31,955 nucleotides of DNA from an uncultured Gemmatimonadales bacterium. Lineage in GTDB: Bacteria > Gemmatimonadota > Gemmatimonadetes > Gemmatimonadales > GWC2-71-9. The notes below the pieces were generated by a model, which saw only the letters and a list, made by a program, of their open reading frames with translations, ran no database searches and had not been told where the DNA came from. Position numbers and translations under genes: made by a program. The stretch is taken from assembly GCA_963825055.1 (NCBI GenBank), contig CAWGSK010000024.1, positions 1 through 31,955 on the forward strand, given 5' to 3'. Shown here piece by piece: positions 3,299 to 29,167 of this stretch (positions within the stretch are counted from its first letter, which is position 1; the number at the start of each line of letters is the position of its first letter).

Positions 3299-4387
3299 AT
3301 GGCAACAGCGACGGTGGAACGGATTATCAAGGCTGCGGTGGCGCGCGGCGCCTCCGACCTGCTCATCAAGGCAGGGGATGTGTTCCGGGCCCGCATCAAC
3401 GGCGTCCTCGAGCCCCTCACGAAGCAGCGGCTGACTCCCGACCAGACCCGGGCTATTGCCATGAAACTGGTCGGCTCCGATACCGACCGCGCCCGCCTGG
3501 ACCGCACCCAGGATTTCGACTGCAGCTGGGGGCTGCCGGGAGTGGGCCGGTTCCGGGTGAACGTGAGCCGGCAGCGTTCCAGTTTCATGATCGTCATGCG
3601 GGTGATCCCGTTCGACGTGCCCACGCTCGAAGGGTTGCACCTTCCCGCGGCCCTCGCGTCCATCGCGGAGGCGGAACGGGGGCTCGTCATCGTGAGTGGC
3701 GCCTCGGGTGGCGGCAAGACCTCGACCGTGGCCGCGATGCTGAACCATGTGAATCGCAATTTCCAGCGCCACATCGTCACGATCGAGGATCCCATCGAGT
3801 TCCTGCATCGTGATGTGAAGTCATCGGTGACCCAGCGCGAGGTGGGCGTGGATACCGCGTCCTACCTGGTCGGTCTCGGGGCGGCGCTTCGCCAGGACCC
3901 CGACGTGATCGTCCTGGGCGAGCTGGTCGACAGCGAGACAATGGACCGGGCGATAAAGGCGGCGGAGATGGGCCACCTGGTCCTGGCGGCGATGACCACA
4001 TACGACGTGACGCAGACCGTCGCACGGCTCCTGGCACTCTACCGTCGCGATGAGCGCCACGTCGGACGTCTCCGCCTCGCGAGTGTGCTTCGCGCGGTCA
4101 TCAGCCAGCGCCTGGTACCGCGGGGTGACGACGGGGGCCGCGTGCCTGCGGTCGAGATTCTCATGTCGAGCCCGGAAATCCGGGCGCGGATCGAGGAGCC
4201 GAACCGGCTGGGCGAGCTGCGCGAGGTGATGGAATCCGGGGGCGAAGCCGGGATGCAGACGCTGGAGCAGCACCTCTCCGCGCTCACGGCAGAGGGCACG
4301 ATCTCCGCTGAGACGGCCCGGGCGGTGGCGGCCGATCCCGAAGCCCTCGACCTCCCCCGGGCAAAGGGTCGAAGGGCGAAGTCATGA
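3299..4387 (+). CDS. pilT: PilT/PilU-family type IV pilus retraction ATPase (divergent paralog)
   Basis: GASD, GRFRVN, Walker A GASGGGKT, TIEDPIEF, QREVG, LRQDPDVIVLGE, VISQRL and GMQTLEQ. The His box is degenerate. Confidence 0.85.
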   Translation: MATATVERIIKAAVARGASDLLIKAGDVFRARINGVLEPLTKQRLTPDQTRAIAMKLVGSDTDRARLDRTQDFDCSWGLPGVGRFRVNVSRQRSSFMIVMRVIPFDVPTLEGLHLPAALASIAEAERGLVIVSGASGGGKTSTVAAMLNHVNRNFQRHIVTIEDPIEFLHRDVKSSVTQREVGVDTASYLVGLGAALRQDPDVIVLGELVDSETMDRAIKAAEMGHLVLAAMTTYDVTQTVARLLALYRRDERHVGRLRLASVLRAVISQRLVPRGDDGGRVPAVEILMSSPEIRARIEEPNRLGELREVMESGGEAGMQTLEQHLSALTAEGTISAETARAVAADPEALDLPRAKGRRAKS

Positions 4388-7985: not shown

Positions 7986-9884
7986 TCACGGCTGGTTCTG
8001 CTGGAACCAGGTTGCCACGTCGAACCCGACCGGGTCGATCTCGTAATACCGGTTCTTGGTGAACCGTCCAGTCGTCGGATAGTACGGCGGCGGCTGGTCC
8101 ACGCCGCAGTGGTCGTAGGTGTCCTGCTCGGCCCACCCGGAGGAGCCGGAGTAGGTGGCGGCGATGCCCTGCTGGATCGAGCCACCGATCATCTTCTTGC
8201 AGCCGCGGGTCGTGCCGCCGCAGTTCTCCGGCGATACCACCGATTCGCCGCTGGCGCCGATGTTCTCGCCGGTGAAGGCGCCCAGGGTCAGCATGAACCC
8301 GTGGATGAGTTCGTCGGGCGTGTCGTCGAACTGCACCGTCCAGCTGCTGTTCACCTTGAAAGGCGTATTGACACTGTTGTCGGCCACGGTGGCATCGTCC
8401 GGGGTCAGCAGGCCCAGGATGTCGGCGCACGTCGTGTTCGGCGGCGTGACGTAGGTGATGTCGTCATCGATCATGACCTGACCGGTGGAGACCAGGGTAA
8501 CCCGGCCGCGTATAGTCCCGCTGACGCCGACGGAGCCCGAGACATAGATGACGCCCTTGAAGTTGGGGTTCATCGCCCGGCTCAGCGGGATCATGGTGAG
8601 CGCCACCGCGCCGGCGTTCGCGACGTTGGTGACCCCCTGGGTCACGAGCGCTGCGGAGATGGTCGCGTTGGGCGTGCCGCCCCAGCCCGCCCAGGTCTGC
8701 CAGGCGCCGTAGGCATTGGCGACCCGCGCGAGTGAATCCGGTTCCAGGAACCGGTCACCCCCCAGGTAGCAGCGGCGGCTCGCGCTGGCGAGCGCCGTCC
8801 GCACGGCATTCCGGGCGTTGGTGGTGCCCTGGCCGTAGAAGGCGACGATCGAGTCCGCGGTGTACCAGTCGGTGACGCCGCCCAGCGTCACCGTGCCGCC
8901 GCAGTTGGCGGAGTTGAAGTTGGGGTCGGTCGAGCTGCTGGTGCCGCCGGGCCAGCTGTAGCCGCCCGGATAGGCCCATTTCCGGCCATTGGCATAGGCA
9001 CGGTTCCGCTGCTTGACGTAGCCGCTCCCGGTCTGGTCCGCCTTGAAGATCCGGAAGAAGCCTTCGTTGGCGTCGGTGACGTCCCCGTCGTTGTTGAGAT
9101 CCAGCGGGACAAACTCGATCCGGGTATCCGGATCGAATGCGCCGAGGGTCCCGTCCCCGGTGAAGTCAGTGTTACCCGCCTGGGCATAGATCTGCATCGC
9201 CGTCAGGGTCGCTGTGGTCGGGAACGTGATGGGCGGCGCACTCGTGGTGATGCCGCCGTTCCAGTTCCCCTGGTTCTGGTTACTGACACTGGCTGCCACG
9301 ACGGATACAGGCCCCCAGAAGGTGGCGCCGGGCTGGCCACCCCGGCTTTGCACGGCCATGCCCTGGTTGGAGTGCAGGGGCCCGAAGATGACTTCCTGGT
9401 TGCCCCACATGCAGCAGGACCAGGTATTGAAAAACCGGGCAAATCGGCTGAACGGATCCTGCTTGAGCTGGATCCGGCGGACCACCACGGCGCCACGGGC
9501 GTTGCTGATGACCGAGATGGCACTGGCGAAAATGCCGAACTGCCCCGTGCTGTCCCCGGAGCGGCCTGCGTAGACAGAACGGGTGAAGCCCGGAATCACG
9601 TTGCCGTAGGCGTCACGCACGACGGCGTTGAGCTGGAGCGTGTCGAACGCGCCCGGTCCGTTGGGCAGCAGGGCCGGCGTGCCGTTCAGGGTATCACGCG
9701 CCCACTCGAGGCCGCCATCGGCGGCACCTTCCATCATCGCCTCGGTCGCATGGAACTTGGTGATGAGGTTGGTGTTGCTGGACATGATAATGACGCCCAC
9801 GGCCATACCGGTGACCATGAGGGCCAGCAGCACAGTGAGGATGAGGGCGACGCCACGCTCGTTCAGCTTCGGATACTTGCGCAT
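7986..9884 (-). CDS. Large PilX/GspK-like minor pilin with extended C-terminal domain
   Basis: Class III signal ERG|VALILTVLLALMV lacking Glu5 (a PilX hallmark), then EGAADGGLEWA. 632 aa with a Gly/Thr/Asn/Cys-rich C-terminal part. Last gene of the pilin cluster. Confidence 0.8.
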   Translation of the reverse strand: MRKYPKLNERGVALILTVLLALMVTGMAVGVIIMSSNTNLITKFHATEAMMEGAADGGLEWARDTLNGTPALLPNGPGAFDTLQLNAVVRDAYGNVIPGFTRSVYAGRSGDSTGQFGIFASAISVISNARGAVVVRRIQLKQDPFSRFARFFNTWSCCMWGNQEVIFGPLHSNQGMAVQSRGGQPGATFWGPVSVVAASVSNQNQGNWNGGITTSAPPITFPTTATLTAMQIYAQAGNTDFTGDGTLGAFDPDTRIEFVPLDLNNDGDVTDANEGFFRIFKADQTGSGYVKQRNRAYANGRKWAYPGGYSWPGGTSSSTDPNFNSANCGGTVTLGGVTDWYTADSIVAFYGQGTTNARNAVRTALASASRRCYLGGDRFLEPDSLARVANAYGAWQTWAGWGGTPNATISAALVTQGVTNVANAGAVALTMIPLSRAMNPNFKGVIYVSGSVGVSGTIRGRVTLVSTGQVMIDDDITYVTPPNTTCADILGLLTPDDATVADNSVNTPFKVNSSWTVQFDDTPDELIHGFMLTLGAFTGENIGASGESVVSPENCGGTTRGCKKMIGGSIQQGIAATYSGSSGWAEQDTYDHCGVDQPPPYYPTTGRFTKNRYYEIDPVGFDVATWFQQNQP

Positions 9885-9915: not shown

Positions 9916-11088
9916 CTACGGGTTCACGAGGGTCGGGGCGCTGATGGACAGGCTGGATTCCGTCGGGGAACAGTCCTGTGCCGCCACGCCGTATTCATAG
10001 ATCTGGCCGACCACGAGCCCCTGGCCGACCGTGATGTCGTAACTGGGCTGTCCGGCCGCCACGGACTGGAACGGGAGCCAGGTCGGCGAGCCGACGAGCC
10101 GGTAGTACACGTTGTACTGGGACACGTCCGTCTCGCCCGAGGTCTCGTCGACCGACGGGTTCCACTGGAGCCGCACCGTCGGGGGCGTGGTCGGCGCATT
10201 GGGGGTGGCGATCACCGCCGACGTGAAGATGGGCTGGTCGCCGCAGGTCTTGAGCTGGACCAGGCCGTTGTTCGGCGTCCCGATCATGGTGGAGACGAGG
10301 CGGGCCGTGGAGTCCGTCCCGTCCGCGTTGGTCACCATGAAATTCACCCGCACGACCCGGATGCTGTCCGCGAGCGCCGAGGCCGCGGTGTCCGCCGGGC
10401 TGCCGTGCCAGCCGGCCGTATGGCGGAATGGCACTCGAGCGGCGGCGAGCTGCGTGGACACCACCGTGCCGGCCGCGGTCGAGCTGTCGTACCAGAACTC
10501 GAAGAATGGACGCCCGGGGTATGGATAGATGTTCCGGGCGACCTGTTCCGGCGGCATGACATTCACCTGCTGCAGCAGCAGGAAGTCGTTCGGGTCCGGC
10601 GTGGTCGAGTCAGGACGGAAGTAGAACATCATCGTCTCCGCCTGGCTCGGCGTGCCCGCGCCCCAGAAATAGTTGGAGTCCGGATATTGGGTCGCGGTCC
10701 CGGGGATGGTCAGCTTGGCGTTGTTCCGCATGCTGGATACTGCCCCGGCCGGAACATCAGGGTTGATGTAGAGCGCCGTTCCGTCGGGAACCACGGCCGC
10801 ATAGTTCGTGTTGAACAGGATCGTGGTGTTCGACCCGTACACGAACATCGGCTGGTTGGCCGCGACCCCTGCACCGGTGGTCCGGAGCACCCGGTCGATC
10901 GTGCTCACGGCATAACGCATGTTCTGCATCATCTCCATGCGGGTGCCTCCCCGCCTGAAGTTGATGCTCTGCGAGCGCATCATCGTCAGGGCGCTGCCCA
11001 TCACGATCCCCATGACCACCAGGGCCACCAGCAGCTCGACCAGAGTGAAGCCGGTCCGTTCGTCGTGTGCGCGCAGGATCGTCGTCAT
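9916..11088 (-). CDS. PilW-like minor pilin with C-terminal fibronectin type III-like domain
   Basis: TG|FTLVELLVAL prepilin motif. C-terminal VRLQWNPS...SQYNVYYR...GLVVGQIYEYGVAAQD is an FN3 pattern. Confidence 0.85.
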   Translation of the reverse strand: MTTILRAHDERTGFTLVELLVALVVMGIVMGSALTMMRSQSINFRRGGTRMEMMQNMRYAVSTIDRVLRTTGAGVAANQPMFVYGSNTTILFNTNYAAVVPDGTALYINPDVPAGAVSSMRNNAKLTIPGTATQYPDSNYFWGAGTPSQAETMMFYFRPDSTTPDPNDFLLLQQVNVMPPEQVARNIYPYPGRPFFEFWYDSSTAAGTVVSTQLAAARVPFRHTAGWHGSPADTAASALADSIRVVRVNFMVTNADGTDSTARLVSTMIGTPNNGLVQLKTCGDQPIFTSAVIATPNAPTTPPTVRLQWNPSVDETSGETDVSQYNVYYRLVGSPTWLPFQSVAAGQPSYDITVGQGLVVGQIYEYGVAAQDCSPTESSLSISAPTLVNP

Positions 11089-11468
11089 GGGGCCGCCACT
11101 ACGATGGTGATATTGACCGGCGGGCCCATCGTGGGCTCCGACACCGTCACGGTGATCGTCGTATAGTCGCGCCGGGGGTTGTTGCCCGTCGTGCGGAGCA
11201 CCCGGGTGGTCCGGGTCATGTTCGGATAGCCGGAGAAGCCGGTCACCGTGTTGTTGTTGTACGTCGCGACCAGCGTCGTGTAGCTGGTGTTGGCGCGGAT
11301 GATCTCGGCCTGTTCCTGCGCCACGGCGGTCGCGACCGTCTTGGCGTTCGATGTCCCGACGGTATGGAGGAAGGAGCCCACGAACCGGCCCAGCCCCAGC
11401 GCCACCACGGACAGAATGACGATGGCGACGAGCACTTCCACCAGGGTGAACCCGCGCTGCGTGCGCAT
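11085..11468 (-). CDS. PilV-like minor pilin
   Basis: RG|FTLVEVLVAIVIL, A..VAQEQAE and a C-terminal ITVTVS strand. 127 aa, translationally coupled to both neighbours. Confidence 0.88.
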   Translation of the reverse strand: MRTQRGFTLVEVLVAIVILSVVALGLGRFVGSFLHTVGTSNAKTVATAVAQEQAEIIRANTSYTTLVATYNNNTVTGFSGYPNMTRTTRVLRTTGNNPRRDYTTITVTVSEPTMGPPVNITIVVAAP

Positions 11469-12079
11469 CAGTTGCCTCGCTTCCAGGTGCTCGACGCGTA
11501 GGTGTACCAGACGACCCGACCGCTGGAGCGGATGATCTCGCCCGCGCGGACGCCGTTGGTGGACCCGGCGGCGAGGCCCTTCACGGTGTTCAGATAGAAG
11601 CCGCCCGCCTCGCTGGCGGAACCGTCCCGACGGAACGCGACTACGGGGAGCCCCGCCTGCGTCTGGGTGAAGTTGACCGTGGCCAGTCCCTGGGTGCCGT
11701 TGGTGTAGGTAACCGGGGGGGCGGCGCCGATGCCGAACGTCACGCCCTCTTCCAGGTTGGTGTAGGTCACGCGCTCGCCGGCCTCGATCACGCCGTTGTT
11801 GTTCCGGTCCTCGTGTACCCGGAGCCGGCGGTTGGGCTGGTCGACCGCCACCCGGATGTCATGCTGGAGGGTGACCGCGAGCCGCTGGGAATAGCTCAGG
11901 GTCGCGGTGATCCCCCGGACGGCGGAGTTCACCCGATACCCTTCCAGGTTGAGACGGGGAATGGCGATCGCGCTGACCAGGCCGATGACGGCCACGACGG
12001 TCAGGAGCTCGATGAGCGTGAACCCCGCGCGGCGTGCGGCGCGGCCGGTGCACCGTATTGCGTATGTGGTGTGGATCAT
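11468..12079 (-). CDS. FimT/FimU/GspH-like minor pilin
   Basis: AG|FTLIELLTVVAVIGLVSAIAIP, DRNNNGVIEAGE, FRRDGS and SSGRV. ATG at 12079 with GGGAG 5 nt upstream. Confidence 0.88.
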   Translation of the reverse strand: MIHTTYAIRCTGRAARRAGFTLIELLTVVAVIGLVSAIAIPRLNLEGYRVNSAVRGITATLSYSQRLAVTLQHDIRVAVDQPNRRLRVHEDRNNNGVIEAGERVTYTNLEEGVTFGIGAAPPVTYTNGTQGLATVNFTQTQAGLPVVAFRRDGSASEAGGFYLNTVKGLAAGSTNGVRAGEIIRSSGRVVWYTYASSTWKRGN

Positions 12080-12086
12080 GTCTGCT

Positions 12087-12162
12087 CCCAGGCAGCCGGG
12101 CAATCTCGGGGAGACCCCTGGCTTTGCGCCCCGCCGTCGCCGGCGGTTAGCTCTTTTCTGGA
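12087..12162 (-). ncRNA. GEMM-I cyclic-dinucleotide riboswitch (c-di-GMP-I family), A20 variant, candidate 3',3'-cGAMP sensor
   Basis: Minus strand reads UCCAG AAAAGA GCUAA CCGCCG GCGA CGGCGG GGCGC AAAGCC AGGGGUCUC CCC GAGAUUGCCC GGCU GC CUGGG. P1, the GNRA-capped P2, GCAAAGCC, P3 and the A47/C92 equivalents are all present. Confidence 0.88.
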
Positions 12163-12246
12163 CGCCCGTTCCGTTCCTAGGGTGAACGACCGGGCAAGGG
12201 CCGCCCTGGCCGGGGCCGGGTGCGGGCGCGATAGACCTGACTGATT

Positions 12247-12263
12247 TGCAAGTTCCAAGCCCG
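12247..12263 (-). promoter_or_regulatory. Putative sigma54 (-24/-12) promoter of the minor-pilin operon
   Basis: Minus strand CGGGC-TTGGAAC-TTGCA has GG-N10-GC spacing and lies just upstream of the riboswitch. Confidence 0.5.
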
Positions 12264-12381
12264 ACCCTGGACAGCGGAACAAGCCCAATGAGGCCAGGGG
12301 GTTGGCAGTGACTCGGGACGGGCCCGGGCGTTCGTTGCGATCGCACCTTGCTGGAGAGGTGGCGGCCCGCTATGCCGTTCC

Positions 12382-12410
12382 TTGCAGTGGTATTGACCCC
12401 CCTCTATGTT
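12382..12410 (+). promoter_or_regulatory. Putative sigma70 promoter of glyQS
   Basis: TTGCAG-N17-TATGTT, 44 nt before the ATG at 12455. Confidence 0.4.
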
Positions 12411-12454
12411 CCGCCCCGAGCCACTTCCGACCCTTACCGGGACACCGGCACGGC

Positions 12455-13789
12455 ATGACCGATACCAAGCGCATGGAGAAACTCGTGTCGCTCGCAAAGC
12501 GACGCGGATTCGTCTTCCAGTCCTCCGAGATCTACGGCGGGCTCGGCTCGGTCTGGGACTATGGCCCTCTCGGCGTCGAACTCAAGCGGAACGTGAAGGA
12601 GCGCTGGTGGCAGGCGATGGTCCATGCCCGTGATGACATCGAAGGCCTCGATGCCGCCATACTGATGCACCCGAAGGTCTGGGAGGCCTCCGGGCACGTC
12701 TCCGGCTTCACCGACCCTCTGGTGGACTGCCGCCAGTGCAAGAACCGTTTCCGTGCGGACGACCCCCGGATCAAGGGCACCCCGGGCGAGCCCGATGCGC
12801 AGTGCCCCGTCTGCGGCAGCCGGGGCACGCTGACCGCGCCCCGGCTCTTCAACCTCATGTTCAAGACCTTCATGGGGCCGGTGGAGGAGGACGCCGCGGT
12901 GGTGTACCTGCGGCCGGAGACGGCGCAGGGCATCTACGTGAATTACCTGAACGTGCTGCAGGCGAGCCGCCAGCGCGTCCCGTTCGGGATCGCGCAGATC
13001 GGGAAGGCGTTCCGCAACGAGATCACGCCCGGGAACTTCATCTTCCGCACCCGCGAATTCGAGCAGATGGAGATGCAGTTCTTCGTCAAGCCCGGCGAGG
13101 ACATGGCGTGGTTCGAGCGCTGGCGGGAATGGCGCATGGCGTGGCACCACGGACTCGGCCTGTCGCCCGAACGCCTCCGCTGGCACGAGCACGGCCCCGA
13201 CGAACTCGCCCACTACGCCCGCGCGGCTTACGATATCGAGTATGAGTTTCCCTTCGGCTGGAACGAGATCGAAGGCATCCACAACCGGGGGGATTTCGAC
13301 CTCTCCCGCCACCAGGAGCACTCCGGGAAGAAGCTGGAGTACTTCGACCAGGCGGCCAACGAGCGGTATCTCCCGTTCGTTGTGGAGACGTCGGCGGGCG
13401 CGGATCGGGTCACCCTCACCGTGCTGGTGGATGCATATCGCGAGGAGGAAGTGGCGGGCGAGACCCGGGTGGTCATGGGGTTCCATCCCGTCCTCGCCCC
13501 CATCAAGGCCGGCGTCTTCCCCCTGGTAAAAAAGGACGGCATGCCTGAGCGTGCCGACCGGGTCTACCAGGCCCTCCGCCGGCGGATGCCCGTATTCTAC
13601 GACGACAGCGGGGCCATCGGCCGCCGATACCGGCGGATGGACGAGGCCGGCACTCCGTTCTGCATCACTATCGACGGTGACACCCTCGCCGGCGGCGAGG
13701 TCACCGTGCGCGAGCGCGACTCGATGGCCCAGGTCCGGGTCAGCGAGGACACGCTGGCGGCCTACCTGCAGGAGCGGCTCGCCGACTGA
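12455..13789 (+). CDS. glyQS: Glycine--tRNA ligase, alpha2 homodimeric type
   Basis: [52 protein letters not shown] and [14 protein letters not shown]. Confidence 0.96.
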
Positions 13790-23279: not shown

Positions 23280-24776
23280 GTGAACCTTCCGCCGCGCGGT
23301 CCCGGCATCGTCCGGCTCCTGCTCGTCTTCCTCTGCTTCGTGGCGCTTCTGCCGGGCAGTGCGGCGGCACAGATCATCTCGCCCGGCAAGCTTGCGCAGG
23401 ACCATGCGGAGCTGGAGGGGATCCGGAACTGCACGCAGTGTCACCAGCTCCGGCAGCGGGGGATCGACAATGCGAAGTGCCTCGAGTGCCACGCTCCGCT
23501 GAAGCGACGGATCGACGAGCGGAAGGGGCTGCACGCGAGGTCGAGCGAGCGGAACTGTGCCGACTGCCACCGCGACCACTTCGGTCGCGAGTTCGCCCTG
23601 GTCGCCTTCGACACGGCCAGGTTCGACCACGCCGATGCGGGATACGACCTGGAAGGAGCGCACCATGACCTCGGCTGCCGCGACTGCCACGAACCGGTCC
23701 TGGTGCGTGCGCCCGACGTCCGGGCATTTGCCTCTCGCCACGGCGGGCTCGACCGCACCTTCCTCGGCCTCGGGACGACCTGCCGGAGCTGTCACGAGTC
23801 GGATGACCCGCACGGCGAGCAGTTCGGCGACCGTGCCTGTACGGCCTGCCATACCCAGCAGGACTGGACTCCCGCATCAGGCTTCGACCACGACCGCGCG
23901 AAGTACCGCCTCACCGGCGCCCACCGGCAAGTGGACTGCGCCGGCTGCCACCGCGACCAGAGCCGTGATCCCAGGCATCCGCGCGTGCGCTACACCGGCC
24001 TCGCCTCTGGTGCCTGCAGTGACTGCCACACCGACCCGCATGGCGGCGCGATGAACGGCGCATGCGCCACCTGTCACGCCACCACCGGCTGGCGACAGCT
24101 CGATCGCTCGGGCTTCGAGGGCCGCTTTGACCACAGCAGGACCGGCTTCATCCTGCGGGGCGCCCATGCGGGGGCCGACTGCCGGGCGTGCCACACTCCC
24201 GCACGGGCGCCCCGGGCGGGTGTGCGGATCCGCTTCGTGGCCGGGGGTGGCTCGTCAACGTACCCGAAGCCGGTGGCGCGGGACTGCCTGAGCTGCCACG
24301 TGGACCGCCACCAGGGTGCCTTCAAGGAGGTGGAGGGCGGCCCGGTGTGCACCAACTGCCACGGCGAGCGAGCCTGGCTGCCGTCATCCTTCGATCTCGA
24401 GCGCCACAACCGGCCCGGTGGCTATGCCCTCACGGGCGCGCATCGCGCGGTCGCCTGCCAGGACTGCCACGTCCGGTCCGCGGACTCCACGGCCTGGACA
24501 TGGCACATCACCGGGCAGTCCTGCGAAGACTGTCACGGCGCCCGTGAGCCGCATGCCGGCCAGTTCGCCGGACGGGCGTGCGCCGACTGCCACACGATTG
24601 CCACGTTCGCCCTCGCCGGCTTCGACCACTCGAAGACCCGATACCCGCTCGACGGCGCGCACGTGAAGCTCCCCTGCGCCGACTGCCACCGCCAGGAGAC
24701 GACGGCGGATGGGAAGACCTTCCGTCGCTACACGCCCCTCGGCACGGCCTGCCGGGACTGTCATGGAGGGACCTGA
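23280..24776 (+). CDS. Multiheme c-type cytochrome, 17 CxxCH motifs
   Basis: Sec signal peptide (…GSAAA|Q). 17 CxxCH counted by hand. Repeating FDH…L-x-GAH…CxxCH units. Confidence 0.93.
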   Translation: MNLPPRGPGIVRLLLVFLCFVALLPGSAAAQIISPGKLAQDHAELEGIRNCTQCHQLRQRGIDNAKCLECHAPLKRRIDERKGLHARSSERNCADCHRDHFGREFALVAFDTARFDHADAGYDLEGAHHDLGCRDCHEPVLVRAPDVRAFASRHGGLDRTFLGLGTTCRSCHESDDPHGEQFGDRACTACHTQQDWTPASGFDHDRAKYRLTGAHRQVDCAGCHRDQSRDPRHPRVRYTGLASGACSDCHTDPHGGAMNGACATCHATTGWRQLDRSGFEGRFDHSRTGFILRGAHAGADCRACHTPARAPRAGVRIRFVAGGGSSTYPKPVARDCLSCHVDRHQGAFKEVEGGPVCTNCHGERAWLPSSFDLERHNRPGGYALTGAHRAVACQDCHVRSADSTAWTWHITGQSCEDCHGAREPHAGQFAGRACADCHTIATFALAGFDHSKTRYPLDGAHVKLPCADCHRQETTADGKTFRRYTPLGTACRDCHGGT

Positions 24777-24777
24777 G

Positions 24778-26304
24778 ATGCGTCGAGCCCTGCTGTCGGT
24801 CCTCCTCGCGCTGCCGCTCGCGGCCGGCGCCCTCATGGCTCAGGCCGGCACGCCGAGCCCGCACGGCGACATGCGCGTCAACATCGACTGCAGTGCCTGT
24901 CACACACCCCTGGTGTGGAAGCCGGTCAAGGCGGCCATGGAGTTCGACCATGCGCGCCAGGCTCAGTTCCCGTTGACCGGCCGGCATGCGGCGGTTCCCT
25001 GTGCCCGATGCCACCTGGACGCGCGTTTCGACGAGCCGAAGATCGCCCCGGACCAGTGCCGGGACTGTCACCTGGACGTACATCGCGGCCGCCTGCCCGA
25101 CTGCGCCTCCTGCCACACCACCACGACCTTCCAGAGCGTGCCTGCCATCCAGGTGCACGCGCGCACGAGTTTTCCCCTCACCGGGGCACATCTCCAGGTG
25201 CCGTGCGAAAGCTGCCACACGGACGAACGGCATGGCGCGTTCGCCCCGGTGGACGGCGATTGCGTCAGCTGCCACCTGCCCGACTACCAGGGCGCGCAGA
25301 CGGTCGACCACGTTGCCGCCGGCTTCCCGACCACCTGCCGCCGGTGCCACTCGACCGTGGCCTGGACCGGCGGGGTGCCGTTTGACCACGTGTCCGTTTC
25401 GGGCGGATTCGTCCTGGCGGGCGCCCACGTCCAGCTCCGCTGTGCGAGTTGTCACGTTCCGCCGTCAGGCATGCTCAAGTTCGTGCCGCCGCCATCCAGT
25501 GCGAATGACTGCGTCGCCTGTCACCAGCAGGACTACAACCGCCAGCACGGCAACAGCGGATTCCCGACCACGTGCACCGATTGTCATAACGTGAACACGT
25601 GGGATGATGCGCATTTCGACCACACCGCGGCCAGCGGCGGCTTCGCGCTGCTCGGCGCCCACCAGCACACCAGCTGCGATGGCTGTCACATCCCGCCGTC
25701 GAACCAGCTCCGCTTCACGCCTTCGGGACAGAACGACTGCATTGCGTGCCACCAGCAGGAGTTCACCGCCCAGCACGGAACGGGCGGGATCCCGAACACC
25801 TGCCTCGACTGCCACACCGTGGACACGTGGTCCGGGGCGACGTTTGATCACGCGGCCATTGCCAACGGCTTCGCCCTGGTCGGGGCCCACCAGCAAAGCC
25901 CCTGCGCGGCCTGCCACATTCCGCCGGACAACCAGCTCCGGTGGACCCCCAGCGGGCAGAACGACTGTGCGGCCTGCCACCAGGCCGATTACGACGCCCA
26001 GCACACCGGCAGCGGCTTCCCGCTGACCTGCCTGACCTGTCATACGGTGGACAGCTGGACGGGCGGTTCGTTCACCAACCACGATGCCCAGTTCTTCCCG
26101 ATCTACTCCGGGAAGCACAACGGCAGGTGGAACAACGACTGCTCGACCTGCCACAATGTGGCCGGGAACTACACCGCCTTCACGTGCTTCGCATGTCACG
26201 AGCACAACCAGACGGAGACCGACGGACACCACCGCGGGATCTCCGGGTACGCCTATACCAGCACGGCCTGCTACTCCTGCCACGCCAACGGGAGGTCCGA
26301 TTGA
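24778..26304 (+). CDS. Multiheme c-type cytochrome, 19 CxxCH motifs
   Basis: ATG at 24778 with GGAGG RBS. Signal peptide MRRALLSVLLALPLAAGALMA|Q. 19 CxxCH counted by hand. Confidence 0.93.
   Translation: MRRALLSVLLALPLAAGALMAQAGTPSPHGDMRVNIDCSACHTPLVWKPVKAAMEFDHARQAQFPLTGRHAAVPCARCHLDARFDEPKIAPDQCRDCHLDVHRGRLPDCASCHTTTTFQSVPAIQVHARTSFPLTGAHLQVPCESCHTDERHGAFAPVDGDCVSCHLPDYQGAQTVDHVAAGFPTTCRRCHSTVAWTGGVPFDHVSVSGGFVLAGAHVQLRCASCHVPPSGMLKFVPPPSSANDCVACHQQDYNRQHGNSGFPTTCTDCHNVNTWDDAHFDHTAASGGFALLGAHQHTSCDGCHIPPSNQLRFTPSGQNDCIACHQQEFTAQHGTGGIPNTCLDCHTVDTWSGATFDHAAIANGFALVGAHQQSPCAACHIPPDNQLRWTPSGQNDCAACHQADYDAQHTGSGFPLTCLTCHTVDSWTGGSFTNHDAQFFPIYSGKHNGRWNNDCSTCHNVAGNYTAFTCFACHEHNQTETDGHHRGISGYAYTSTACYSCHANGRSD
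25381..26070 (+). repeat. Three tandem intragenic triheme repeat units (234/228/228 bp)
   Basis: Units begin FDH at 25381, 25615 and 25843. Each reads GF-x-L-x-GAH..CxxCH-x-PP..NDCxACHQ..QH..G-x-P-x-TCxxCH-x-V-x-x-W. Confidence 0.85.
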
Positions 26305-27854
26305 GGACACCCGCCGCAGTGGCGATGTTGCTCGCGCTCCTTCCGGCCTATGCCGGTGCGCAGGACAGCACCGTGACGGCGACCGTCACGCAGATTGCCG
26401 GACAGGACGTCTACATCAACGCGGGAAGCGATGCCGGCCTGCACGCGACTGACACCGTGACCGTGCGTCGCGCGGCCGCCGGCCCTGTCCTGGGGCGGAT
26501 GACCGTCTCCGCCGCAACCGGCAGCAGGGCGCTCCTCGGCTTTCTCGACGCACCGTTCCCGCTCACCCGTGGCGATGAGCTGTTCCTCGGGATGCACGGG
26601 GGGGCGGCCCCGGAGGCCGTGCCGGCGCCGGCACCTCCGCGGGTCGCGGCCACGTCACGCCCGCGGACAGAGGCTCCGGGCGGGACCGTGGTGCACGGCC
26701 GCCTGCTGCTGGACGTCGATGGGAACCGCTCGACCACGCGCGGGTTCGGGTCGGACCCCGAGACCACGAGCCGGGACTATGCAACCCCCTCGGCCGGGCT
26801 CCGGCTCCAGGCCACCCGGCTGCCGGGTAACATGGAGTTCAGCACGGACGTCCGGGCCCGCTACCGCTACACCAGCAACGACATCATCTCACCCGCCACT
26901 GCCGTCCGGGTGTACGAGGCCAGCCTGACCCGGCGGCTCCCCGGGTCGGGATTCCTCGTGCGTGCTGGCCGGTTCTATGACCCGTACGAGTATTTCAGCG
27001 GCTACTGGGACGGCCTGATGGTGCACGCCGGCGATGAGGGGTTCGGCGTCGCCGCGCTGGCGGGCTTCGAGCCCGACCGCGGCAACCAGGGGTTCAGCAC
27101 CGACTACGCGAAGGCCAGCCTGGTCGCCCATGCGAGCCGGATCCGCGGGCGCTCCGGGATCCGGACAGATGTGTCGGTGCACCGGGTCATGCCGCGGGAT
27201 TCCTCTCCCGACCATACGTTCGCCGGCTGGTCGCAGGTCGCATGGACCGGCCGGCTTTCCTTCAGCCACAATCTGCAGGTGGACCGGAACCCGGCGAGCG
27301 GGAACTGGAATGTCACCCGCCTGCTGACCCGCCTGACCCTTCCGGTGGGTTCCTCGCTCACGCTGCACGGCGGCTATTCCATCCAGCAGCCCTACCGGCT
27401 GGGCACGACGTTCGGCGCCATCCCCTTCCGCCGGGACCGCGCCACCGCCGGCTTCGACGTCCGCCTCCCGGGAGCGAGCATCGGGGCGGACGTGAGCAAG
27501 GGCCACCAGGAGGGACTGGACGATACCTGGAGCTACTCTGGATCAGTGTACCGGTCGCCGCGGGGCCAGCACGGCGTCGGGATCGGACTCACCGGCACCC
27601 GCTGGACGGAAACGGGAAGCAACGGCGTGCTGCTTGCACCGTCCCTGGACCGGCAGTTTGGCCACTTCACGGTCCGGGGAGGGTACCAGTATTCCCGCAC
27701 CGAGTTCGGCTCCCTCGTCCTCACCACCCATGCCGCCGACCTGGGCGGCACGGTTCCCCTGGGGGGGCGAACCGGGCTGACCCTCCGGGCCCGGTGGCAG
27801 AGCGGACAGCTCTCGAGCACCGGACTGTACGCCGGCTTCTGGTACGGGTTCTGA
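26301..27854 (+). CDS. Putative outer-membrane beta-barrel (porin) with small N-terminal domain
   Basis: TTG start after GGGAGG, signal peptide (…AYAGA|Q), Pro/Ala linker, alternating amphipathic strands and a C-terminal beta-signal GLYAGFWYGF. Confidence 0.78.
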   Translation: MRTPAAVAMLLALLPAYAGAQDSTVTATVTQIAGQDVYINAGSDAGLHATDTVTVRRAAAGPVLGRMTVSAATGSRALLGFLDAPFPLTRGDELFLGMHGGAAPEAVPAPAPPRVAATSRPRTEAPGGTVVHGRLLLDVDGNRSTTRGFGSDPETTSRDYATPSAGLRLQATRLPGNMEFSTDVRARYRYTSNDIISPATAVRVYEASLTRRLPGSGFLVRAGRFYDPYEYFSGYWDGLMVHAGDEGFGVAALAGFEPDRGNQGFSTDYAKASLVAHASRIRGRSGIRTDVSVHRVMPRDSSPDHTFAGWSQVAWTGRLSFSHNLQVDRNPASGNWNVTRLLTRLTLPVGSSLTLHGGYSIQQPYRLGTTFGAIPFRRDRATAGFDVRLPGASIGADVSKGHQEGLDDTWSYSGSVYRSPRGQHGVGIGLTGTRWTETGSNGVLLAPSLDRQFGHFTVRGGYQYSRTEFGSLVLTTHAADLGGTVPLGGRTGLTLRARWQSGQLSSTGLYAGFWYGF

Positions 27855-29167
27855 TGGACCAGGATACCCTGATTATCGGCGGTACGGCCGCGGGCCTCGT
27901 GCTCGTGGCCATCGCGCCGTTCTACCTCCGTACCCGGCGGCTCGAGCGTCGGGCGACACGCGCGGCCGTGGAGGCCGAACGTTACGGCCTGCACGAACCG
28001 GTGAGCCTGCATCCCGTGGTGCATGCCGGCGCGTGTATCGGTACCGGCGCCTGCATCGATGTCTGCCCGGAAGGGGATGTCCTTGGACTGGTGCACGGGC
28101 AGGCGCGTCCCATTGCGCCGGCACGCTGCGTGGGACACGGTCTCTGCGAACGGGCCTGTCCCGTCGAGGCAATCCAGCTCGTGTTCGGGACCGCCACGCG
28201 CGGCGTCGAACTGCCGCGGGTGCGGGCCGATTTCCAGACCAACGTGCCGGGTCTCTATGTGATCGGTGAGCTGGGGGGCATGGGCCTCATCCGCAACGCC
28301 TTCGAACAGGGGCGGCAGTGCGTTGACGGCATCGCGCGCGCGCCAAGGCCCGGCGGGGAGGACCTTGAAGTCCTGATCGTGGGAGCGGGTCCCGCCGGAC
28401 TCTCCGCCTCCCTCGCGTGTCGGGAACGGGGGCTGCGCTTTGCCACCATCGAGCGGGAGGATATCGGCGGGACCGTGCGCTCCTATCCCCGAAAGAAGGT
28501 CGTCATGACCCGGCCCTTCGACATCCCGGGCTGGGGGAAGATCCCCGCCTCCGAGGTGCCCAAGGAGCGCCTGATGGAGATCTGGAGCGAGGTGGTGGAG
28601 CGCACGGGCCTCAGCGTTACGACAGGGACGACCGTTCAGTCAGTGACCCGCCAGGATGACGGGCGGTTCACGGTGGAGACCTCGGGCGGCACCTGGCGGG
28701 CGCACCGGGTGGTGCTGGCGATCGGCCGGCGCGGCATTCCGCGCAAGCTCGGCGTACCCGGCGAGGAGCTGCCGAAGGTTTCCTACTCCCTCCTGGAGCC
28801 CGAAGCGTGGCAGGGCGACCGCATTGTCGTGGTCGGGGGCGGTGATTCCGCGGTGGAGGCGGCCCTGGCCCTGGCGGACCAGCCGGGGAACCAGGTGACG
28901 GTCTCCTACCGGCGCGACCGCTTCAACCGGCTCAAGCCGGGCAACCTCGACCGCGTGGAGCACGCCATCAGCGATGGCACGGTCACGGTGCTCTGGGAAA
29001 GCCGGCTCGAGGCCATCGCCGCGGACCGGGTGACGTGGCAGGACAAGGCCGGTGCCCGGCACGAACTCCCGAACGACCGCGTGTTCATATTTGCCGGCGG
29101 CGAACTCCCCAGCGGGTTCCTGAAGGACTGCGGTATCATCGTGGATACGAAGTTCGGGGAGGCGTGA
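27854..29167 (+). CDS. Membrane-anchored 2x[Fe-S] ferredoxin + TrxR/YpdA-like NAD(P)/FAD oxidoreductase
   Basis: N-terminal TM helix. CIGTGACIDVCP and CVGHGLCERACP. GAGPAG (FAD), AIGRRG, and GGGDSAVEAA plus SYRR (NADPH). Confidence 0.88.
   Translation: MDQDTLIIGGTAAGLVLVAIAPFYLRTRRLERRATRAAVEAERYGLHEPVSLHPVVHAGACIGTGACIDVCPEGDVLGLVHGQARPIAPARCVGHGLCERACPVEAIQLVFGTATRGVELPRVRADFQTNVPGLYVIGELGGMGLIRNAFEQGRQCVDGIARAPRPGGEDLEVLIVGAGPAGLSASLACRERGLRFATIEREDIGGTVRSYPRKKVVMTRPFDIPGWGKIPASEVPKERLMEIWSEVVERTGLSVTTGTTVQSVTRQDDGRFTVETSGGTWRAHRVVLAIGRRGIPRKLGVPGEELPKVSYSLLEPEAWQGDRIVVVGGGDSAVEAALALADQPGNQVTVSYRRDRFNRLKPGNLDRVEHAISDGTVTVLWESRLEAIAADRVTWQDKAGARHELPNDRVFIFAGGELPSGFLKDCGIIVDTKFGEA

Follow-up and report, generated by a model that had tools for sequence, protein, structure and literature searches.

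A GEMM-I riboswitch aptamer with adenine at position 20 stands before a type IV minor-pilin operon in a member of the Gemmatimonadales, which raises the question of whether pilus-tip assembly is controlled there by 3′,3′-cGAMP, by c-di-GMP, or by both. The aptamer lies on the minus strand of the 31,955-nucleotide stretch of DNA analyzed here (the window). A reading made from the letters alone (the sequence-only reading) had described a complete GEMM-I fold and proposed that this lineage may use cGAMP signaling to control the pilus tip, with the caveat that some A20 aptamers are promiscuous.

A cmscan search of the whole window against Rfam returned a single match, to the c-di-GMP-I model RF01051, at 12162-12088 on the minus strand. 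The match scored 53.5 bits (E 6e-8) against a gathering score of 35 and spanned the full model, columns 1–87, so that the fold and all of its named elements were borne out by the covariance-model search that the sequence-only reading had suggested as a check. In the Rfam alignment, the aptamer (12087..12162, minus strand) consists of P1, formed by UCCAG (12162-12158) and CUGGG (12091-12087); J1/2, AAAAGA; P2, CCGCCG-GCGA-CGGCGG, with G-C/C-G at its base; the segment GGCGCAAAGCC; and P3, GGUCUC...GAGAUUG. Model column 11, the G immediately 5′ of P2, is occupied by A at 12152, and the 27 nt from there to the A at 12125 match the distance between positions 20 and 47. We numbered the window aptamer by this column and this distance; the number 47 and the mapping of Vc2 numbering onto the Rfam columns are our assumption. 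A47 (12125) is the intercalating base, and A20 (12152), a G in most orthologues, recognizes the ligand's alpha nucleotide. Position 23 is U (12149) where the model has A, and position 92 is C (12092), so all four bases lie where the sequence-only reading had placed them. The Vc2 numbers 20 and 92 follow PMC6140456, which describes C92 as pairing with G-beta of the ligand. U23 also occurs with G20 in the aptamers of two relatives (G097 and G132), and hence it is tolerated and unlinked to A20.

Across nine related aptamers, 92.7% of cells are paired and 7 of 26 pairs show two-sided change; none of 500 shuffles scored as high, a result that counts as support rather than proof, since related sequences can exceed shuffles without structure. 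The C44-G83 tertiary pair is kept in all nine. The folding energy of the window aptamer by itself is ordinary (z −0.99). Contigs from two runs of one soil study, X1 (12075-12427; possibly the source sample) and X2 (11571-12414), show no differences from the window across the aptamer, which excludes assembly error as the origin of A20 and U23. With its three-helix junction of conserved, covarying pairs, A47, and C92, the window aptamer is a GEMM-I member; it has A at 12152 in place of the G20 of c-di-GMP selectivity, and it thereby carries the GEMM-Ib base, A20 with A47 and C92 being the signature of that subclass. It resembles Vc2 and RF01051 in the full-length model match, the P1-P2-P3 junction, A47, C92, the P2-base G-C/C-G, and C44-G83, and differs from them in A20, U23, a short P3, its Gemmatimonadales host, and a P1 that overlaps the Shine-Dalgarno sequence of a minor-pilin gene. 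The GCGA loop and the short GUCUC/GAGA P3, which the sequence-only reading had counted as resembling cGAMP-sensing RNAs, do not serve as cGAMP marks, because G20 relatives carry both.

The operon behind the aptamer, all on the minus strand, begins with a FimU/GspH-like minor pilin of 203 aa (11468..12079), which has an N_methyl motif and whose orthologues match GspH (PF12019). It continues with a PilV-like minor pilin of 127 aa (11085..11468), also with an N_methyl motif and named from its size and gene order, and a PilW-like minor pilin of 390 aa (9916..11088), with an N_methyl motif and an inferred name. The last gene encodes a 632-aa protein (7986..9884), again named by inference as PilX-like, with a pilin-like N-terminus that lacks Glu5; this protein has no Pfam match and is kept at 34–48% in orthologous operons. 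The glycyl-tRNA synthetase gene glyS (12455..13789, plus strand), which served here for taxonomy and synteny, is divergent from the operon, and the four-gene arrangement recurs in relatives, mostly divergent from glyS. The nearest relatives of this synthetase are from Gemmatimonadales, at 82–84% identity, which provides the taxonomic placement that the sequence-only reading had called for and agrees with its claim that an A20 aptamer heads a minor-pilin operon outside Geobacter.

The host genome (G000) is 87% complete, and 14 of its contigs (349 kb) duplicate others wholly or partly. The assembly holds two strain haplotypes of the window. The second, at C12:105938-135279, is missing pilW and most of pilX, and its aptamer is shortened by a 17-nt deletion that runs across P1, J1/2, and A20; this deletion is known from the C12 assembly alone and is not among the differences listed for the run contigs, although a contig of run X1 carries the C12-type differences in fimU-pilV. 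In five close relatives (L045, L047, L050, L058, and G097), glyS adjoins an FAD oxidoreductase gene without the operon, and in three others (L055-L057) the operon is present without an Rfam match. At L277 (G097) and L050, a G20 aptamer still adjoins glyS, with no pilin operon found there.

Sigma-54 promoters share a −24/−12 consensus, and a motif of this type (GG-N8-TTGC, with the −24 GG and the −12 TTGC) lies upstream of the aptamer at 12248..12261 on the minus strand. Shuffles would give 0.69 occurrences of the motif among 12 related upstream regions, of which 10 contain it, and it is retained in the sister haplotype despite an otherwise diverged promoter region; a gene with the RpoN box is present in the host genome. 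We infer that transcription starts near 12236. No sigma-70 promoter was found for the aptamer leader, and no intrinsic terminator was found 3′ of the aptamer on the minus strand. By comparison of related loci and with the 16S tail (located at C12:386318), the Shine-Dalgarno sequence is GGGAG at 12085..12089 (minus strand), which overlaps the 3′ strand of P1 and forms the expression platform. The ATG start codon of the first pilin gene, at 12079, follows 8 nt past the end of the model, so the leader combines an upstream promoter motif, a Shine-Dalgarno sequence within P1, and a nearby start. All 11 related loci have GGAG on or adjoining the P1 3′ strand, with the start codon 8–16 nt past C93.

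When the bound fold was enforced in folding calculations, the first three Shine-Dalgarno bases were fully paired, and an alternative that opens the Shine-Dalgarno sequence cost 4.8–5.8 kcal/mol. The free ensemble also keeps these bases mostly paired (unpaired probability 0.02–0.34), and folding by itself is thus no demonstration of switching. The position of the Shine-Dalgarno sequence on the P1 3′ strand, together with the absence of a terminator, instead points to regulation of translation, most likely by an OFF switch whose direction is predicted from this architecture; the sequence-only reading had not remarked on this mode of control. Reporters built on Geobacter GEMM-Ib RNAs are described in PMC6456294 as ON switches, whereas the window architecture is predicted to act in the opposite sense.

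Is A20 a trait of the lineage at this locus? Ten operons have a first gene 42–100% identical to that of the window; eight carry G20 and two, those of G000 and G018, carry A20. Searching 201 family genomes with a pattern for this aptamer subtype produced 68 matches, three of which came from unpublished genomes and were left out. In the 196 usable genomes, 62 of the 65 remaining aptamers have G20; the aptamers counted do not all precede pilin genes. The three A20 copies are in G000, G018, and G143, none of which has the Ser-type Hypr cyclase pattern described below, while 37 G20 copies reside in genomes that do have it. In a FimU tree, the branches of the two A20 alleles do not separate one origin from two. 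A20 is therefore not conserved among orthologues of the locus as it would be in a GEMM-Ib lineage (2 of 10 operons; 3 of 65 subtype matches). It is a sporadic allele, and G20, the c-di-GMP type, is the family state of the pilin-operon switch. Little beyond base 20 distinguishes the window aptamer from its G20 relatives. Elsewhere, PilX-like genes have GEMM-I aptamers of their own (L276 in G143, L022 in G008, and L039 in G022), two of these aptamers having A20 and the other two G20; G143 has one of each kind, 2.2 kb apart.

Published aptamers illustrate what A20 can do to ligand choice. The G20A variant of Vc2 is reported as bispecific, with 53 nM for c-di-GMP and 120 nM for cGAMP, and the natural A20 aptamer Cbe 1-2 of Clostridium beijerinckii prefers c-di-GMP 15-fold (30 nM versus 463 nM for cGAMP; both PMC6140456). 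Gs1761 prefers cGAMP by 3-fold to more than 1000-fold depending on the method (PMC6140456) and is strongly cGAMP-selective by in-line probing (0.53 versus 660 nM, cited in PMC6140456); Gmet_0970 is another strongly cGAMP-selective A20 aptamer (PMC6456294). In Desulfobacca, a natural variant with A, whose paralogues have G, is described as having gained cGAMP affinity and perhaps slightly lost c-di-GMP affinity (PMC9481103). Hence, as the sequence-only reading had cautioned, A20 alone does not fix selectivity (PMC6140456). The window RNA comes close to being a point variant of G20 aptamers, and bispecificity is thus the best guess: by analogy, it probably binds both c-di-GMP and 3′,3′-cGAMP. 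Cbe 1-2 and the Desulfobacca acetoxidans cluster-3 aptamer are similar, bispecific cases, with A20 in an otherwise c-di-GMP-type lineage or set of paralogues; they differ in phylum and target, and the binding figures are theirs, the window aptamer being known by its sequence. With the Geobacter GEMM-Ib aptamers (Gs1761 of pgcA and Gmet_0970), it shares A20, a link to pilus genes, and a genome rich in multiheme cytochromes. Those aptamers have a proven Hypr cyclase of the Ser type, GacA, as their partner, whereas the window allele is sporadic and its assembly contains no synthase.

The host is well supplied with c-di-GMP components. At the selectivity site of its 12 GGDEF domains, found by a Pfam search and a profile of our own in all six frames, Asp occurs in eight and the site is degenerate in four; none has Ser, Thr, or Asn, and tblastn searches that used the Ser- and Asn-type proteins of relatives as queries recovered generic GGDEF domains only. 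There is also a tandem MshEN motif in its PilB (C30:2333-4117); for V. cholerae, MshEN is reported to bind c-di-GMP with a KD of 0.5 µM, compared with 330 µM for cGAMP, a difference of about 600-fold (PMC5013675). The search for a Hypr cyclase that the sequence-only reading had proposed thus yielded none among the 12 GGDEF domains, which is weak evidence of absence because of the 87% completeness of the assembly and the absence from it of the block containing the family's Asn-type GGDEF gene; its companion search, for other A20 aptamers in the genome, did succeed (at contig C30, below). Two of the seven HD-GYP proteins found in the host, at C4:57238-58335 (RPYQ) and C13:225699-227333 (RSYQ), have the RxxQ motif that 10.1101/600031 ties to cGAMP-selective hydrolysis, so that a cGAMP-type phosphodiesterase, in the likeness of PmxA-type RxxQ/N HD-GYP enzymes, is present as a sequence signature. 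The RPYQ pattern, which was tuned to G000, occurs in 30 of 36 family genomes and in none of 24 genomes from two other families.

A CdnE-like nucleotidyltransferase, the only CD-NTase of the host, is encoded beside a patatin gene at C5:2-1819 and is cut by the contig end. It keeps Asn at the position aligned to RmCdnE 166, where Asn denotes pyrimidine preference. We read this pair as an anti-phage CBASS and set it aside as a housekeeping source of cGAMP.

Hypr cyclases are characterized by Ser348, GGDE[F/Y], and mostly a residue other than Arg at 304 (PMC6456294, PMC8835794). An initial Ser pattern gave 23 matches, 8 of them non-GGDEF, and a stricter pattern was used for all later counts. The stricter Ser-type pattern is found in 57 of the 196 family genomes, with unpublished genomes left out. 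Among 15 loci that were read, the 13 of the MASE1-GGDEF type have Tyr304. The MASE1-GGDEF proteins L125-L143 combine Ser348, GGDEF, and Tyr304, in the likeness of the Hypr cyclases GacA, GacB, and Bd0367. In a neighboring family, such proteins were found in 6 of 12 genomes and RF01051 in only 1 of 12. The Asn-type pattern is more widespread and near-core in the family (153 of 196 genomes). The copies checked are Fe-S hydrogenase-like GGDEF proteins; of 17 read, all have GGDEF and 16 have Tyr or Phe at 304, and that of G020 has Ser instead of Asn at 348. We regard the Fe-S hydrogenase-like GGDEF as a candidate new Hypr type, and found no experimentally tested Asn-type variant in the literature searched. 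Both groups, known from sequence, differ from established Hypr enzymes in their sensor domains (MASE1 and Fe-S hydrogenase-like); in the near-core group Asn takes the place of Ser, and neither group is in the host assembly. In relatives, the Fe-S GGDEF gene lies in a block with gcvT, mogA, and ornithine carbamoyltransferase. The whole block has no orthologue in G000 while gcvP is present, and so the host's Fe-S GGDEF gene probably falls within a gap of the assembly. A MASE9-HD-GYP gene and a sigma-54 activator also belong to the block (L231, L232, L144, and L301-L306).

Possible readers of a second dinucleotide extend beyond the pilin operon. Among 106 RF01051 matches in the host and its relatives, 59 have A20 and 45 have G20; 2 were unread. 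The host has an A20 aptamer before a STAS gene (C30:47495-47572) and a G20 aptamer before a lipoprotein-like gene without a Pfam match (C17:28279-28355). In all 20 aptamers that precede a STAS-like gene of about 100 aa, including that at C30, position 20 is A; the STAS identity was confirmed by Pfam for each of five genes tested. A distinct GEMM-I class, marked by CUCAG-A20, G48, and a GAAA loop (for example L030, L035, L158, and L172), has 103 matches, every one with A20, and, where the gene was read, mostly precedes Ig-repeat/fn3 lipoproteins; it is absent from G000. The Ser-type pattern occurs in 33 of 51 genomes with this class and in 24 of 145 without it, in counts where kin are not independent, and in 11 of 16 versus 11 of 60 when one genome is taken per genus. 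Four tandem leaders (L279 in G123, L280 in G182, L281 in G132, and G185:C2:1094994-1095367) place an A20/G48 aptamer 180–196 nt before a G20 aptamer, and their genomes carry the Ser-type pattern; these are candidate two-input gates.

How, then, is the window allele best explained? In the reading we favor, which we hold to have an even chance of being right, a sigma-54 promoter would transcribe the leader containing the aptamer, and ligand binding would close P1 over the Shine-Dalgarno sequence of the first minor-pilin gene and turn translation of the pilus-tip operon off. The family state would be G20, responding to c-di-GMP, and the window strain would carry a sporadic G20A allele, most likely bispecific, so that either c-di-GMP or 3′,3′-cGAMP could silence the operon. 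Asp-type GGDEF domains and the MshEN motif in PilB indicate that c-di-GMP is available and wired to pili, and the two RxxQ HD-GYP proteins together with the near-core, Hypr-like GGDEF of the family make cGAMP plausible in the cell. A true ligand switch, in which a cGAMP-selective A20 allele has moved pilus-tip translation from the c-di-GMP to the cGAMP regulon, would draw on the A20/A47/C92 signature, the RxxQ proteins of the host, the second A20 orthologue in G018, and the family Fe-S GGDEF with Asn348 and an aromatic residue 304, whose block is missing although gcvP is present. We consider it unlikely nonetheless, as most orthologues (8 of 10) have G20, the A20 copies sit in genomes without the Ser-type pattern, the literature searched offers no tested Asn-type cyclase, and hardly more than base 20 separates the window aptamer from its G20 relatives, the very setting in which G20A was bispecific; cGAMP is, moreover, described as having no major role in regulating type IV pilus motility in Myxococcus (10.1101/600031).

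The lineage-wide cGAMP control of the pilus tip put forward in the sequence-only reading is not supported, given G20 in eight of the ten orthologous operons and in 62 of 65 subtype aptamers, the c-di-GMP motif kept in PilB, and the Ser-type pattern found alongside 37 G20 copies and none of the three A20 copies; what stands is its suggestion of cGAMP signaling in the lineage, for which there are independent signs at the family level. The RNA might instead be effectively a c-di-GMP switch in which A20 is tolerated, a protonated A20 reading guanine as in Cbe 1-2, and cGAMP has no cellular part. The 15-fold c-di-GMP preference of Cbe 1-2 (PMC6140456), Asp at all eight readable GGDEF sites, MshEN in PilB, and a sole CD-NTase of the CdnE type beside patatin, with Asn at the RmCdnE 166 position, would all suit such a switch. 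It is nevertheless rather improbable in our view: writer-, eraser-, and reader-like variants recur in the family and are hard to explain without a second dinucleotide, and the missing synthase probably falls in the assembly gap. Drift under relaxed selection, with A20 and U23 as marks of a decaying RNA that responds weakly or not at all, is very unlikely. The C12 haplotype with its truncated aptamer and operon, the relatives without the operon, and those with the operon and no Rfam match (L055-L057) would be in keeping with decay, but the window haplotype has all four genes intact and keeps every helix and C44-G83, U23 also occurs in G20 aptamers, and the aptamer deletion is a feature of the C12 assembly alone.

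For these reasons, we do not file the window aptamer as a proven cGAMP riboswitch: its diagnostic base is unconserved at the locus, and its selectivity is a prediction. The candidate network across the family may be the more interesting part. We propose tentatively, at somewhat short of even confidence, that this Gemmatimonadales family runs a 3′,3′-cGAMP pathway beside c-di-GMP, with the Asn348/aromatic-304 Fe-S GGDEF as a new Hypr cyclase, the clade-restricted MASE1-GGDEF proteins with all three Hypr marks, the RxxQ phosphodiesterase, and readers comprising fixed A20 aptamers and tandem A20/G48-G20 gates about 180 nt apart. The window allele would then be a single-base, strain-level rewiring that places pilus-tip translation under redox-linked cGAMP. 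We found no report of a riboswitch or of cGAMP signaling in Gemmatimonadota in the titles and abstracts searched, and the family supplies sequence signatures of a cGAMP writer, eraser, and readers for this phylum, as well as an inexpensive way to learn whether a Hypr cyclase can work with Asn in place of Ser. If bispecific, the window aptamer would be a natural one-base widening of a riboswitch's input, with its G20 orthologues as ready controls, and it serves as a warning that A20 alone is insufficient for calling cGAMP control.

Elsewhere in the window, 23280-29167 holds a pair of multiheme cytochrome c genes and, after them, a gene for a ferredoxin-flavin oxidoreductase, and a type II/IV secretion ATPase, possibly PilT-like, is encoded at 3299-4387.
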